From: Pseudobdellovibrionaceae bacterium
GTDB lineage: Bacteria; Bdellovibrionota; Bdellovibrionia; Bdellovibrionales; Bdellovibrionaceae
Direction: 5' to 3'
DNA length: 15,005 bases
NCBI GenBank assembly: GCA_050186175.1
Contig: JBFWYS010000030.1
Location: 1 to 15,005 of the forward strand
How positions within the stretch are numbered: position 1 is the stretch's first letter; every line of letters starts with the position of its first letter. A program made the translations under genes and the position numbers. Below the pieces are notes generated by a model. That model made no database searches. It saw nothing but the letters and a program-made list of their open reading frames with translations, and was not told the DNA's origin. Below, piece after piece: positions 3,968 to 7,927 of the stretch.

Positions 3968-5038
3968 ATGACTTGCAAAAACACTGATAGTCCTGTAACA
4001 GATTACACAGTAGCATCAGATGGATCAGGAGATTACACTTCCGTTCAAGCTGCAATTGATGCTGCGATGAGTAATGGAGGAAATGCTACAGTTTGGTTAA
4101 AAAATGGAAATTATGTAGAAAATCTCACTTTTTACAGCGGCATTAATATAGTTGGGTCTTCAGGCCTAGGAGACTTAGGAGACGTTCAAATTACAGGGAC
4201 TCACATACCTCCTCTTTCTGGTCATGTTATTTTAAGAAATATTAGATGGAACAGCTCCGATTATATCTTATATTCCGAGAAACCTGGAACGTCTCACATC
4301 ACTTTCATCGATGCACTTTTAAATGTCACTAATGGATACACTTGCTATCTACCCTATTGGAATGGAGCTGAAGGTGGAGTTTTAGAGTTTGAAGACATTA
4401 ATGCGGGCCTACCCAATCAATCTCAAGACGGAGGAATATATAATCCTTACGGAGGAGCACAGATTTTTTTGTATAATGCTGGAATTGGGATGGGTAAAGA
4501 GCAAGAAATGCATGTTAGTGGTCAAATGGCCATGTTAGCAGGGTCTATTAATTGTCCATTTCATCTTGACTCGGGAGCTATTCTTGAGTGTGATTCTAGC
4601 CTTATTCTGGGTGGGATGATCTTTGGTGGAAATTCCGAAGCCAGAATTTCAAACTCTAGAATTACGAATGATTCAGGAGCCTCCATAATAATGGAAAGCA
4701 TTGGTAAAATCGAGCTAAGCTCTTGTGTTATAGACTGCTACAATAACCCTACAATTACTGGTAACAGTAAAGGTGAACTAAAAATAAGTGGCTGCACTTT
4801 CCCAAAAAATACAAATATTTCAGAAAATGCTAGCCCTCAAATTACAGGATCATTGAAAGTTGGTTGTTTAGAAGTATCTCCAGGACAAGTGAAAGTTTTC
4901 TCTAGCCTAGGACCTCCCACCAGTAAGGCACCGAAAGGCTCTTTATACTTGAGAACAGATGGACTATCTAGTAAAACAAGGTTATACATCAATATCGATG
5001 GTGAGTATGAATGGACACCAGTTCTCACTGAAAAGTGA
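3968..5038 (+). CDS. right-handed parallel beta-helix repeat protein (pectin-lyase-fold superfamily) with no signal peptide
   Basis: The N-terminal cap DGSGDYTSVQAAIDAA...NATVWLKNGNYVENL is the classic beta-helix or pectinesterase-type cap. Repeated G-rich, N/S-containing ~22-aa turns follow. Canonical pectinesterase catalytic motifs (QDTL, DFIFG) are absent. The RBS gagga sits 8 nt upstream, and an in-frame TGA lies immediately before the ATG. TGA stop. Confidence 0.7.
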   Translation: MTCKNTDSPVTDYTVASDGSGDYTSVQAAIDAAMSNGGNATVWLKNGNYVENLTFYSGINIVGSSGLGDLGDVQITGTHIPPLSGHVILRNIRWNSSDYILYSEKPGTSHITFIDALLNVTNGYTCYLPYWNGAEGGVLEFEDINAGLPNQSQDGGIYNPYGGAQIFLYNAGIGMGKEQEMHVSGQMAMLAGSINCPFHLDSGAILECDSSLILGGMIFGGNSEARISNSRITNDSGASIIMESIGKIELSSCVIDCYNNPTITGNSKGELKISGCTFPKNTNISENASPQITGSLKVGCLEVSPGQVKVFSSLGPPTSKAPKGSLYLRTDGLSSKTRLYINIDGEYEWTPVLTEK

Positions 5039-5067
5039 TAAACCTCTAAACACAAAAAGATAAATCA

Positions 5068-5556
5068 TTGATTGTTAAAAATATAATTTCGAATTATGGG
5101 CTTAAGCCCCATCCTGAAGGTGGATATTACAAAATTTCATTTTGGGATTCCGAAGAAATTCCTCACTTTGCGTTGCCCAGTGAATATGCTGGACCAAGAG
5201 CTTATATGAGTTCCATTTTATATTTACTTCCTAAAAAGGAAAAATGCATTTTTCATAAAATTAAAATGAATGAAGCTTGGGCTTTTCATGCTGGTGGTCC
5301 CTTAAAACTCTATCAATTTTCTCCTACGGGTGAAACAACAGAAGTCATTCTAGGATCAGGCATCAATGAAAGCGTGTTTCATGTTGTTCCAAAGGGATTT
5401 TGGATGGGAGCCTTACCCTCGAATTCTCATGATTACTCGCTAATCAGCTGTATAACTGCTCCTGGATTCACTCCAAATGACTGGATGAAGGGAGAAAAAG
5501 AAGATCTAATTAAAAAATACCCAAGTCACATAGATATTATAGAAATGCTAACCTAA
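5068..5556 (+). CDS. cupin-fold protein of the DUF985 / cupin_5 family (TTG start)
   Basis: It carries the hallmark N-terminal motif LKPHPEGGYY followed by a cupin core (FHKIKMNEAWAFHAGGPLKLY). The only in-frame start is TTG at 5068, since the nearby ATG at 5096 is out of frame. TAA stop. Confidence 0.8.
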   Translation: MIVKNIISNYGLKPHPEGGYYKISFWDSEEIPHFALPSEYAGPRAYMSSILYLLPKKEKCIFHKIKMNEAWAFHAGGPLKLYQFSPTGETTEVILGSGINESVFHVVPKGFWMGALPSNSHDYSLISCITAPGFTPNDWMKGEKEDLIKKYPSHIDIIEMLT

Positions 5557-5571
5557 AGCAGCCAAAGATAA

Positions 5572-6726
5572 TTAACTCTTGTATTCTATCCATTTTTGGA
5601 CAATTTCTTGTTGAAATTTTTTATTCAGCTCAACAAACCCATTTCCCTGATATTTTTCAAGACAAGACTGAAAAATTCCTGCTAAAAGAAGTCCCCTTGT
5701 AAGCTGAAAATCTTTAAGATCAATCTCTTCATAATTTCCATCAAATGGATAAGGAAACCCGCTATTAACAAGACACAAACCTTCAATCCAAAGATCTTCA
5801 TGACAATTAGATCGTGGTTCGATTTTTTTTCTTAAAGCCACAGCATCAAACTCTCTGTCCGAAGATGAGACACTAACCAAAAAATTCGGTCTTTTTAAAT
5901 ATTTATGCAAATGTTTTGGTATACTACAAGATCCTGTACACCCAATAATAGCATCACAAGTTGGTAACAAAGAAATTAATTCATTTTCATAATTATCAAT
6001 AGATAAATAATATTTATTATCTATAGTTCTAATATTGAATCTATTCCTTAAAGTTTTTTTCATGCAGGAACCGATAACACCATTTCCTATAACAAGAATA
6101 TCTTTAATCTGTGACTCTCTTTTATAAATGTGTTTTTTCAACCTATTTACACACAAATCAATAACTAATGGTGTTTCATAAATCAATTTCGCCTTACTTC
6201 TAGCCACATTAATTATAGGAAAGTTGATTTTTTCACTATTTAATTTATTAAATCCAGAGCTTGTTTGTTCGATACCAGAAAAACTATATTTATTAATATA
6301 TTTCTTGTTAAATAAAGAAAGTAAACTTCCCCCTTCATCTAAGAGAATAATTTTATTAAATTCTGTGTTTTTTTTATCTAGAAAAGATTGTATTTCTAAT
6401 TCAAGGTTATTTTGAAAATAATCGTCAAAAGCTAAATGGCTATCATAAAAGTTTGAAAAGCGAGATACTTCAACTCCATCTTCTTTCAGGAGTTTAAGCG
6501 TTTCAGGTCTAGTTGAATAACATTTTCCCATCACAAACAAGTTTTCTGGCCGCAATCCAAATTCAAAAAGGAGAGAAAACAGTGAATGAGTTGTCAAAAA
6601 AAGATGTTGAACGCAAATAAGTAAGACTTTTGAAAGATCCAAAACTTTATTACTTTTAAAACTATTTGCAAACCCCTCCAATACAGGCAAATGTAAATTT
6701 TTTTCTAATAAGATAGAATCATTCAT
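5572..6726 (-). CDS. highly divergent S-adenosyl-L-homocysteine hydrolase (AdoHcyase)-fold NAD-binding protein with non-canonical active-site residues
   Basis: SAHH landmarks are recognisable in the correct order. These are the catalytic-domain helix (CVQHLFLTTHSLFSLLFEFG vs CLHMTVETAVLIETL), the DDGGD loop (LLDEGGSL), EETTTG (EQTSSG) and INVNDSVTKSK (INVARSKAK). The Rossmann GxGxxG (VIGNGVIGS), the TTTGN region (IGCTGSC), HFD (SSDREFD) and the EGRLVNLG..GHP segment (EGLCLVNSGFPYP) are also present. The two conserved histidines are missing. Its start overlaps the MFS stop by 8 nt (tATGAATGA). TAA stop. Confidence 0.6.
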   Translation of the reverse strand: MNDSILLEKNLHLPVLEGFANSFKSNKVLDLSKVLLICVQHLFLTTHSLFSLLFEFGLRPENLFVMGKCYSTRPETLKLLKEDGVEVSRFSNFYDSHLAFDDYFQNNLELEIQSFLDKKNTEFNKIILLDEGGSLLSLFNKKYINKYSFSGIEQTSSGFNKLNSEKINFPIINVARSKAKLIYETPLVIDLCVNRLKKHIYKRESQIKDILVIGNGVIGSCMKKTLRNRFNIRTIDNKYYLSIDNYENELISLLPTCDAIIGCTGSCSIPKHLHKYLKRPNFLVSVSSSDREFDAVALRKKIEPRSNCHEDLWIEGLCLVNSGFPYPFDGNYEEIDLKDFQLTRGLLLAGIFQSCLEKYQGNGFVELNKKFQQEIVQKWIEYKS

Positions 6727-7927
6727 AGTATGAGTTAATGTTGTGAGATTTTTCTTTATTCTTGCGTGGTCTCTGATAAGTCAAAAATGAGCAAATTAGT
6801 AATAAAATAATAAACGTTGGAAAATTAAAAATATTCATTTTTGACAAAATTGGACCAAGAAATTCAGCCAAACTTAGCAAAGCTTCAAGAATTCCAAATA
6901 AAAATCCTTCTTCGTGAATTTTTGTATGTTTTATAAATCCAGCATAAATCAATGGAAGAGCAAAAGAGCTTATCCCTGCAAATGGTAAATAGTAACTGAA
7001 ATTAGAGAGAGAGGCAGAGGAAAAGTATTTAGATGAAATATAGCCAAATACAAAAAGAAGCGCGCAAATAAGATATGTTGTAAAAAGATTTTTCAAATTT
7101 GGAACAAACCTAACAAAAAGATGCACGATATTGCCTATAAAAATACCAACTCCTAGCAAAAAGAAAGAGTTTGAGAGAGTTTCCTTTTGAAAATGAGAAT
7201 CAAGATAATACTGCATCAAATGATAAGATATACCCAAAAACAAAAAAGATAAGAAAATTCTTATCTTTGTCTTTCCTAATCTCTTAATCGAGCTAATCAT
7301 GCTAAGCTCTTCAGAATGATTCTTGTCTTTCTTTATCTTTAAAACAAAAAAACTAGAAAAAAAACTAACAATCCATGTTAAAATCGCTAATTTAAAAACA
7401 TAAGAATTGTATATCTTATAAGAAGAACAAATAATAACCCAGGGTAGAGCTTGTACGGCATAGGACTCTGCAATGATTCTGACGTGGGAGCGCCCATGGT
7501 TTTCACCATGTTCATTTTGGTACCCTTCTTTCTTTCCTTTGTAGTGTTTAGAAAGTTTAAAGTAACTTACATCACAGTAAGCTGCTCTTGCAACAGCTGT
7601 TACATTACAAAATATTCCGTCTATTATTACAGCTGGCAATATCTGATTCATGTAAAGTAAAAGAATTGAAAGAGAAGAGATTAAAACAGTGAACGCAAGA
7701 ACGCTTTTACGACAATGCTTATCAGAAAGATGTCCTGTTACAATTGAGAAGACTACTTGCAAACCAATCCACAACGTAGCATAATTTTCTCCAACCTCAC
7801 CTATATCGCTAAAAACAAGGAGAAAGCACAGTTTAAAGACTTCCTTTGAAGCGATACAAAGCAAGACAATGAAACTGTACAACTTAGTTCTACTCTCCAA
7901 GGGAAAGACGGTAGATTCTATTGTCAT
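6719..7927 (-). CDS. major facilitator superfamily (MFS) transporter, about 12 TM
   Basis: 402-aa polytopic protein with MFS motif A after TM2 (GHLSDKHCRKSVL). The ATG start overlaps the methyltransferase end by 38 nt. An alternative TTG (codon 16, 7882..7880) would remove the overlap, so the start is uncertain. TGA stop. Confidence 0.8.
   Translation of the reverse strand: MTIESTVFPLESRTKLYSFIVLLCIASKEVFKLCFLLVFSDIGEVGENYATLWIGLQVVFSIVTGHLSDKHCRKSVLAFTVLISSLSILLLYMNQILPAVIIDGIFCNVTAVARAAYCDVSYFKLSKHYKGKKEGYQNEHGENHGRSHVRIIAESYAVQALPWVIICSSYKIYNSYVFKLAILTWIVSFFSSFFVLKIKKDKNHSEELSMISSIKRLGKTKIRIFLSFLFLGISYHLMQYYLDSHFQKETLSNSFFLLGVGIFIGNIVHLFVRFVPNLKNLFTTYLICALLFVFGYISSKYFSSASLSNFSYYLPFAGISSFALPLIYAGFIKHTKIHEEGFLFGILEALLSLAEFLGPILSKMNIFNFPTFIILLLICSFLTYQRPRKNKEKSHNINSYYE

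Follow-up and report, generated by a model that had tools for sequence, protein, structure and literature searches.

A large and deeply divergent sister family of S-adenosylhomocysteine hydrolase, linked to methyltransferases and transporters in mostly host-dependent bacteria

The first 15,005 nucleotides of contig JBFWYS010000030.1, assigned to a Pseudobdellovibrionaceae bacterium (assembly GCA_050186175.1), were analysed as one stretch of DNA, hereafter the window. On its reverse strand lies an open reading frame (ORF) that an earlier note, made from the sequence alone, had described as an S-adenosylhomocysteine hydrolase (SAHH)-like protein with an intact cofactor site and a remodelled catalytic site:

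5572..6726, reverse strand: SAHH-like protein, 384 aa, belonging to an uncharacterised, deeply divergent sister family of SAHH

As a single sequence, this ORF is barely recognisable as an S-adenosylhomocysteine (SAH) hydrolase. It had no match to the Pfam AdoHcyase families PF05221 and PF00670 at E<=1, its score against the NCBIfam model ahcY (TIGR00936) was 15.6 bits, far below the cut-off of 497.6, a phmmer search of PDB gave no match, and its identity to SAHHs is only 15-19%. A database search returned 469 relatives of 370-420 aa, and a profile from an alignment of 45 sequences (A1) had adenosylhomocysteinases as all of its top matches in PDB (best E=2.5e-18, covering profile positions of about 7-300). 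When this alignment was compared by hhalign with human AHCY, whose reference sequence is identical to PDB 1LI4 over 432/432 residues, the local alignment placed residues 12-299 on human residues 28-312 with 96.6% probability and the global alignment placed residues 1-384 on human residues 17-403 with 97.4% probability. Both domains of the SAHH fold, the substrate-binding domain and the Rossmann domain that binds nicotinamide adenine dinucleotide (NAD), were recovered in the window protein, which is, on these alignments, a true but very distant SAHH homologue.

The relatives form a large family of their own. An exhaustive profile search of 1.84 billion representatives yielded 3,443 clusters at E<=1e-3 and 1,329 at E<=1e-30; clustered at 50% identity, the family thus comprises 1,329 clusters or more. 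The window protein (P0001) scored 504.8 bits against the family profile. The family is found in Chlamydiota, Rickettsiales and some gammaproteobacteria, mostly host-dependent bacteria, and shares the signature QH...GKCYS...DDGG...EQT[ST][SA]G...NVARSxAKxxxE...GxGxxG...D...GCTG...SxSSSDREF...R...GFPxxF...QLT. Every element of this signature is present in the window protein, in which D131E and GFPYPF are variants of its clade. The family has no model in Pfam or NCBIfam, and no earlier description of such a chlamydial or "SAHH-like" family turned up in literature searches. The earlier note suggested that either of its readings would be new for the fold in Chlamydiae; the protein is, however, not peculiar to one genome, as its family has many clusters in several bacterial groups. 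The 90% identity cluster of the window protein is named "hypothetical protein" by NCBI and has members in metagenome-assembled genomes (MAGs) of Parachlamydiales and Chlamydiales, whereas JGI and one GenBank record name relatives "S-adenosylhomocysteine hydrolase", a label that is misleading for this family. The SAHH-like proteins are a large, undescribed and misannotated subfamily of a classic enzyme fold and not a categorically new chemistry. The gene is under purifying selection and is not decaying, as the ratio of nonsynonymous to synonymous substitution rates (dN/dS) against an 85% identical orthologue is 0.16, although purifying selection by itself does not separate the readings weighed below.

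Residue roles in SAHH were taken from PMC4647836 and PMC10978960, and equivalences from the hhalign alignment with human AHCY. The motifs in question lie in the window as follows:

6589..6609, reverse strand: QHLFLTT, residues 40-46; H41, equivalent to His55, is kept, and an invariant Q40 stands in place of Leu54
6511..6528, reverse strand: GKCYST, residues 67-72, equivalent to C79-N80-I81-F82-S83-T84; G67 and K68 replace the channel-lining Cys79/Asn80
6328..6339, reverse strand: DEGG, residues 130-133, equivalent to DDGG of SAHH; E131 stands at the place of the C4' proton donor Asp131, and D130 is equivalent to Asp130
6253..6270, reverse strand: EQTSSG, residues 153-158, equivalent to EETTTG; Q154 stands in place of Glu156, and T155, equivalent to Thr157, is kept
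6175..6210, reverse strand: NVARSKAKLIYE, residues 173-184 (with NVARSKAK at 173-180), equivalent to NVNDSVTKSKFD; K180 (Lys186) and E184 (Asp190) are invariant, and R176 stands in place of Asp182
6019..6087, reverse strand: predicted NAD-binding Rossmann signature, GNGVIG at residues 214-219 plus the acidic D236 (Glu243) at the end of the second strand
5845..5868, reverse strand: SSSDREFD, residues 287-294, equivalent to GHFDVEID; S287-S288-S289 stand in place of Gly300-His301-Phe302, and R291 is new, at the position of Val304
5743..5766, reverse strand: NSGFPYPF, residues 321-328 (GFPYPF at 323-328); N321 is equivalent to Asn346, and F324 or F328 to His353, followed by an insertion of about 9 residues, in a register of low confidence

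In SAHH, His55 is the proposed general base and Asp131 the C4' proton donor, and the ribose is bound at its 3'-OH by Lys186 and Thr157 and at its 2'-OH by Glu156 and Asp190 (PMC4647836). The catalytic set His55, Asp131, Lys186, Asp190 and Thr157 is found in the window protein as H41, E131, K180, E184 and T155, and the exchange of Asp for Glu at two of these positions (131 and 184) is conservative. Conservation was counted over 256 diverse family members with a median identity to the window protein of about 39%. K68, Y70, E153, K180, E184, D290 and E292 are present in all of them (256/256), D290 and E292 being the kept equivalents of Asp303 and Glu305 of SAHH, and H41 is present in 251, Q154 in 251, S288 in 253, F324 in 253, F328 in 255 and R299 in 255. 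The predicted NAD motif is also complete, with G214/G216/G219, D236 and N321 all near-invariant. The earlier note was right that the lysine of INVARSKAK and the GNGVIGS loop are retained, and orthologues with the same substitutions, for which it proposed a check, do exist. Its claim that the canonical catalytic histidines are lost holds only for His301, which is replaced by serine, since the general-base histidine is kept as H41. Likewise, the change from DDGGD to DEGG is real in the window protein but is specific to its clade, as position 131 is Asp in 245 of the 256 members.

The changes are concentrated in the parts of the pocket that face the substrate. Gly300-His301-Phe302 gates the homocysteine channel and is "completely conserved among SAHHs"; the channel itself is formed by His301-Phe302, Cys79 and Asn80 (PMC4647836). 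This gate is absent from the family. The earlier note had read HFD as REFD, a register that is off by three residues: G300-H301-F302-D303 aligns to S287-S288-S289-D290, and "REFD" to V304-E305-I306-D307. A histidine that is present but shifted can be rejected for His301, as the serine stands there in high-confidence alignments, and no histidine occurs in residues 319-345, the region of His353. The reading of GHP as FPYP is thus borne out as to the missing histidine, but the equivalent residue is F324 or F328, both invariant phenylalanines, and sequence does not fix which, as the local alignment ends at residue 299 and the global one puts H353 on F328, not F324. Since His353 touches adenine through its main chain only (PMC4647836), it is not a catalytic side chain. 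The only conserved histidine nearby is H309 (229/256), in a mostly conserved C308-H309 pair. The change from EETTTG to EQTSSG was confirmed, with the glutamine that replaces Glu156 near-invariant in the family.

The nucleobase-binding signature of SAHHs, HxTxQ(E), or HxT(E)xK in extremophile enzymes (PMC10978960), is not found either. The window protein has H41-L-F-L-T45 and the family H-[LIV]-x-x-[TS]-T, so that the +2 position is a variable hydrophobic residue and the +4 position Thr or Ser. At the other end of the protein, the C-terminal tail whose Lys426 and Tyr430 reach the NAD of the neighbouring subunit is lacking: the global alignment ends at human residue 403, in a stretch of low confidence, and the 59 residues that follow GFP, compared with 78 after GHP, are too few for it. 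In total, the protein is about 50 residues shorter than SAHH. Residues that are invariant in the family and new relative to SAHH are Y70, R176, R291, R299, F324 and F328. Judged from these alignments, the homocysteine channel, the base-recognition motif and the C-terminal NAD clamp have all been replaced in this family.

The catalytic constellation is the same in all six clades that can be defined by genomic context, and context types correspond to clades. Clade-specific positions are 43/44 in the base motif, 73/74, 134, 178 and 183. Two paralogues that are 35% identical can share one locus with different partners. SNE_RS00610 (WP_053225318.1), the member on plasmid pSn of Simkania negevensis Z, has the full signature (517 bits) and is followed by SDR and EamA genes. 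A divergent member (212 bits, 454 aa) annotated as "NAD(P)-dependent oxidoreductase" lies on a plasmid of Legionella pneumophila (L085; NZ_CP015948.1, 5917-7281) next to a 711-aa "response regulator"; it differs at near-invariant sites (D131H, Q154K, R176N, R299N and N321R) and may represent a functionally shifted subfamily. No family member was found in a phage collection.

In the window, the SAHH-like gene is accompanied by the following genes:

8809..9339, reverse strand: truncated MFS gene upstream of the operon, encoding 176 aa that cover the N-terminal half only
7890..8567, reverse strand: MTS/HemK2-like N-methyltransferase dependent on S-adenosylmethionine (SAM), 225 aa, which opens the operon and runs 38 nt into the MFS gene
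6719..7927, reverse strand: MFS transporter, 402 aa, its stop overlapping the SAHH-like start by 8 nt (ATGAATGA)
5068..5556, forward strand: DUF985 (Cupin_5) protein, convergent, 15 bp from the SAHH-like stop

The MTS, MFS and SAHH-like genes form one overlapping operon, with the SAHH-like gene last. This order is kept in an orthologous contig of 85% identity (L083). Among relatives of 61-62% identity, one locus (L081) has the MTS gene followed by the SAHH-like gene and, facing them, a gene for an EamA-FkbM fusion, and another (L082) the order MTS, SAHH-like, EamA, Cupin_5 and FkbM, with an SDR gene facing them. The SAHH-like and MFS genes have a low guanine-cytosine (GC) content (29.0% and 32.2%, compared with 39-43% in the genes on either side and 36.8% across the window), which, together with the presence of members on conjugative plasmids (L084 and L085), suggests horizontal acquisition of the module. 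A scan of positions 5000-9900 for promoters and terminators gave counts equal to those in shuffled sequence. A defence system was considered and rejected on the PADLOC result, which returned nothing for the SAHH-like protein, the MFS transporter and the cupin and only a generic hit for the methyltransferase. The truncated MFS ORF upstream matches Pfam MFS_1 positions 36-140 of 347, has a motif-A-like GYMSDLTSRKKV, and is probably a remnant.

A wider survey of gene neighbourhoods was based on 76 distinct fetched loci, 74 of them usable; with other fetched loci and the window, 76 loci hold a full-length gene. Partners were counted within four genes of the SAHH-like gene:

FkbM methyltransferase and/or EamA transporter: 29/76 loci
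MTS methyltransferase (orthologues 45-63% identical): 18/76 loci
SDR: 15/76 loci
Cupin_5: 9/76 loci
Nudix: 9/76 loci (seven with the order Nudix, NDT-like, SAHH-like)
MFS transporter: 7/76 loci
Hybrid histidine kinase: 6/76 loci

By domain content, the FkbM/EamA ORFs comprise 12 with EamA alone, 10 with FkbM alone and 7 genuine EamA-FkbM fusions. Any methyltransferase was present in 34/76 loci, and a DMT (EamA) or MFS transporter also in 34/76. In a Pfam census of 127 immediate neighbours, methyltransferases were the commonest class (MTS 13, FkbM 5); as a rough estimate, if they make up 1-2% of bacterial genes, only one to three would be expected among 127 neighbours. Several of the same partners are found fused to the SAHH-like protein itself:

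P0144: SAHH-like plus MTS domain
P0134 and P0184: SAHH-like plus Methyltransf_11/25
P0195: SAHH-like plus an N-terminal region with a weak Methyltransf_23/31 match
P0258: SAHH-like plus Nudix
P0208: SAHH-like plus HisKA-HATPase-REC
P0257: SAHH-like plus cNMP-binding domain

When the EamA neighbours were examined as possible SAM/SAH carriers, NCBIfam gave generic DMT/2A78 hits only, and the profile search only names of the "DMT family transporter" type.

Two further observations concern these partners. In seven loci (L010, L017, L020, L025, L053, L063 and L081), the gene beside the SAHH-like gene encodes a protein of 650-700 aa in which an EamA/DMT transporter with 10 transmembrane segments carries a C-terminal FkbM methyltransferase, and such a fusion of transporter and methyltransferase is unusual. 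In Rickettsiales bacterium Ac37b (L001; CP009217.2, 1-11800), modules of a methyltransferase and a hybrid histidine kinase are repeated, one preceded by a tryptophan-dioxygenase-like gene and one by an SAHH-like gene.

Taken together, the kept core and the linkage and fusion to methyltransferases lead us to favour, tentatively, an active NAD-dependent enzyme that relieves its partner methyltransferases of SAH, or of a closely similar thioether nucleoside derived from SAM. By homology, bound NAD+ would oxidise the ribose 3'-OH of the 5'-thioether nucleoside, with K180 as the base, helped by E184, Q154 and T155; the C4' proton would be handled by E131 (Asp in most members), and after elimination of the 5' substituent H41 could act as general acid/base for addition of water or proton transfer, before the 3'-keto group is re-reduced by NADH. 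The most likely substrate would be SAH, the inhibitory by-product of methyltransferases, or a very close analogue derived from SAM. The three serines together with K68, R291 and R299 may form a permanently open, cationic exit channel for the amino-acid carboxylate of the leaving group, and the adjacent MFS transporter (EamA in relatives) might export a product such as homocysteine. The MTS, MFS and SAHH-like operon would then be part of a mobile accessory module, mainly of Chlamydiota, with relatives in Rickettsiales and some gammaproteobacteria.

Several observations are consistent with clearance of SAH. The constant catalytic constellation in all context-defined clades suggests a common metabolite as substrate. 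Cleavage of SAH is thermodynamically unfavoured and needs product removal (PMC10978960), with which an adjacent exporter fits. In a 2011 survey of 26 chlamydial genomes, metK and sahH were found in two only and the rest were proposed to use a DMT-family SAM/SAH antiporter, most of the genomes lacking sahH, pfs and metK (PMC3104491); SAH clearance fits this biology, in which the methyl cycle has been lost in most of the genomes surveyed. A more specific form of the proposal, which we regard as doubtful, is a mobile SAHH-type hydrolase/lyase without gate and tail, coupled to methyltransferases and an exporter, that serves SAM-auxotrophic intracellular bacteria devoid of SahH and Pfs and perhaps salvages adenosine. 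If true, it would be a fourth solution for SAH removal beside SahH, Pfs/LuxS and the deaminase/S-inosyl-homocysteine hydrolase (SIHH) route; a variant in which the substrate is a different SAM-derived nucleoside would be equally novel.

A number of points weigh against clearance of SAH. Both substrate-specific ends of the pocket differ from those of every SAHH, which is the classic pattern of the same chemistry on a different substrate. In a canonical SAHH, the E156Q exchange and a missing His301 should severely impair activity, and the H299A mutation abolishes the activity of the SAHH homologue AgmF (PMC8599513). The Lys426/Tyr430 clamp is missing as well. SAH clearance does not explain the SDR, the DUF985 cupin, the Nudix and NDT-like proteins, the hybrid histidine kinases or the fusion with a cNMP-binding domain, nor the two paralogues that share one locus with different partners. 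L. pneumophila, moreover, has a canonical SAHH, yet its plasmids carry a family member; this argument is given less weight because the plasmid protein is divergent and lacks several signature residues.

It is also quite conceivable, if somewhat less so, that the protein is an active SAHH-type oxidoreductase or lyase acting on a ribonucleoside or nucleotide derivative other than SAH, within a small mobile pathway of which it would be one step. One of the two options of the earlier note, an enzyme whose substrate is new or altered (for example a different thioether nucleoside), is compatible with all findings. In a pathway of this kind, which would follow a logic like that of AgmF, the SDR might re-reduce or redirect a keto intermediate, the cupin might act as an isomerase, MTS and FkbM proteins might carry out methylation, and the MFS or EamA transporter might import a precursor or export the product. 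Remodelling of the base motif and of the 5'-substituent channel around a kept catalytic core argues for such a role, as do the positions that vary between clades (43/44, 73/74, 134, 178 and 183), the recurring module of MTS, SAHH-like, SDR, EamA(-FkbM) and Cupin_5 genes, the Nudix fusion and the triplet of Nudix, NDT-like and SAHH-like genes in 7 loci, the paralogues within one locus and the plasmid-borne members. Loss of the NAD-clamping tail could also allow exchange of NAD(H) and hence net redox, and with AgmF an SAHH homologue that does not take SAH as substrate is already known (PMC8599513). However, the core pocket is near-identical across clades with different partners, which is unexpected for pathway-specific tailoring enzymes, the partner methyltransferases are of at least three unrelated types whose sole shared ligand is SAM/SAH, and the data name no candidate substrate.

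A pseudo-enzyme, the other option of the earlier note, now appears the less likely of the two, as the oxidation/elimination core (H41, D/E131, T155, K180, E184 and N321) is near-invariant, together with the new residues K68, Y70, R176, R291, R299, F324 and F328, and the gene occurs in operons and fusions with enzymes and transporters. Such a protein would bind NAD and adenosine, SAH or SAM without catalysis and regulate a neighbouring methyltransferase, transporter or histidine kinase, as AHCYL1/IRBIT does in animals. We consider this unlikely, although the best PDB sequence matches are AHCYL1/2 (3mtg and 3gvp), Glu156 and the His301/Phe302 dyad are lost with no histidine at His353, the family includes the fusions to HisKA-HATPase-REC (P0208) and to the cNMP-binding domain (P0257), and hybrid kinases are adjacent in Rickettsiales, gammaproteobacteria and Legionella plasmids. 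Catalytic residues are likewise kept in AHCYL proteins, so that a kept core, seen beside the kinase and cNMP-binding fusions, leaves some room for a pseudo-enzyme. On the other side stand the near-invariance of K180, E184, T155, H41, D/E131 and the nicotinamide-site Asn, the predominance of metabolic operons and enzyme fusions among the contexts, and the lack of an N-terminal regulatory extension.

Two more readings can be given very little weight. It is highly improbable that the Rossmann site binds SAM/SAH rather than NAD and that the protein is itself methyltransferase-like, as HcgC; this is prompted by weak matches of Pfam HcgC to the Rossmann region, with E=0.12 in the window protein, 5.6e-5 in P0258 and 2.6e-4 in P0195, and by precomputed Pfam labels that point the same way. 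An ordinary housekeeping SAH hydrolase that evolves fast through reductive genome evolution is just as hard to credit: the JGI and GenBank labels and the match of fold and motif order speak for it, but the score far below the ahcY cut-off, the lack of a Pfam AdoHcyase match and the low identity to SAHHs do not, and a strict signature of its own across at least 1,329 clusters indicates a separate family rather than drift in one lineage. Moreover, there can be several paralogues per genome, some members are plasmid-borne, and where Chlamydiae have a canonical SAHH, its motifs are the standard ones (PMC3104491).

Compared with known systems, the family differs in context from canonical SAHH (AHCY/SahH, EC 3.3.1.1; TIGR00936, PF05221 plus PF00670), as its genes are found in accessory, partly plasmid-borne methyltransferase modules and not with methionine-cycle genes. 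AgmF, the NAD-dependent dehydratase of angustmycin biosynthesis, is similar in that it belongs to the SAHH superfamily, has been annotated as SAH hydrolase and lies in an accessory gene cluster, and it demonstrates that the oxidation-elimination chemistry of the fold can be used on a substrate other than SAH (PMC8599513). AgmF, however, is close to SAHHs in sequence and keeps H56, D129, K184, D188 and H299, each of which is essential (PMC8599513), whereas the far more divergent family described here has Ser at H299 (His301) and equivalents of the other four. Its neighbours are also unlike the AgmA-E type enzymes of the agm cluster, namely the MTS methyltransferase, MFS transporter and DUF985 cupin, with SDR, EamA and FkbM in relatives.

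With the family profile (E=2.5e-18 and 2.6e-17) and in Foldseek, no solved structures score better than AHCYL1 and AHCYL2 (IRBIT; PDB 3MTG and 3GVP), which provide a precedent for a cofactor-binding protein of SAHH fold that does not hydrolyse SAH. AHCYL proteins carry a long N-terminal regulatory domain; the window protein has no N-terminal extension, its residue 1 aligning to human AHCY residue 17. They further differ in having GHS at the Gly-His-Phe position, with the histidine retained, in matching human AHCY at E <= 1e-140 over nearly the whole length, and in being eukaryotic, outside any context of operons or methyltransferase fusions. Archaeal-type SAHHs and SIHHs share with the family a C-terminal domain shorter than that of bacterial and eukaryotic SAHHs, as well as an altered nucleobase motif that shifts substrate preference (PMC10978960), but they match human AHCY at E of about 1e-106 to 1e-113, and their matches to the family profile are weak (E about 1e-9 to 1e-10).

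SAH hydrolase is among the most conserved enzymes, and accounts of homologues with a diverged function are very few (AHCYL/IRBIT, SIH hydrolases and AgmF). A relative without the His-Phe gate, Glu156 and the NAD-clamping tail that is nevertheless strictly conserved and linked to methyltransferases in symbionts deficient in the methyl cycle is surprising. If SAH or a related by-product is removed, the picture of how host-dependent bacteria handle methylation by-products would change and a mobile module for methylation plus export would be added to it; if another nucleoside is the substrate, a new reaction would be added to a classic fold. The sharply defined signature can be used for annotation, and cultured carriers exist, namely S. 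negevensis Z (pSn) and, with the divergent member, L. pneumophila plasmids, as do natural fusion proteins.

Some records of the family call for comment. In a Rhabdochlamydiaceae symbiont of Dictyostelium giganteum (L015, ~5998-7158 and neighbours), SAHH-like genes occur in several adjacent fragments, probably pseudogenised copies. A 2473-bp contig labelled Candidatus Dojkabacteria (L005) is 99% identical to the window across the SAHH-like and cupin genes; it is probably mis-binned, the same 90% protein cluster coming from Parachlamydiales and Chlamydiales MAGs. Several other MAGs, among them those labelled Acidimicrobiaceae (L021) and Acidobacteria (L017), have the exact gene order of chlamydial loci and also look mis-binned. 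A separate SAHH-like clade (L014, L018, L032, L033, L042, L044, L046, L050, L057, L071 and L074) lacks the usual partners within three genes; its contigs are labelled as Candidate Phyla Radiation (CPR) bacteria or as DPANN and other archaea, for which real occurrence and mis-binning are both possible.

Elsewhere in the window, most of the remaining ORFs are without family assignment, and Rfam and tRNA scans of the window found nothing; this includes the stretch of about 1.7 kb at 13300-15005, with a GC fraction of about 0.33, which has no ORF >100 aa, no Rfam family at the gathering threshold and no tRNA. Two genes at 11716-12459 and 12502-12876, both on the reverse strand, encode proteins with ankyrin repeats, as is typical of bacteria that live inside cells or with amoebae. 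On the forward strand at 3968-5038 lies a gene for a 356-aa protein with weak pectinesterase and right-handed beta-helix matches, homologues of which are found two genes from the SAHH-like gene in 3 loci including the window.

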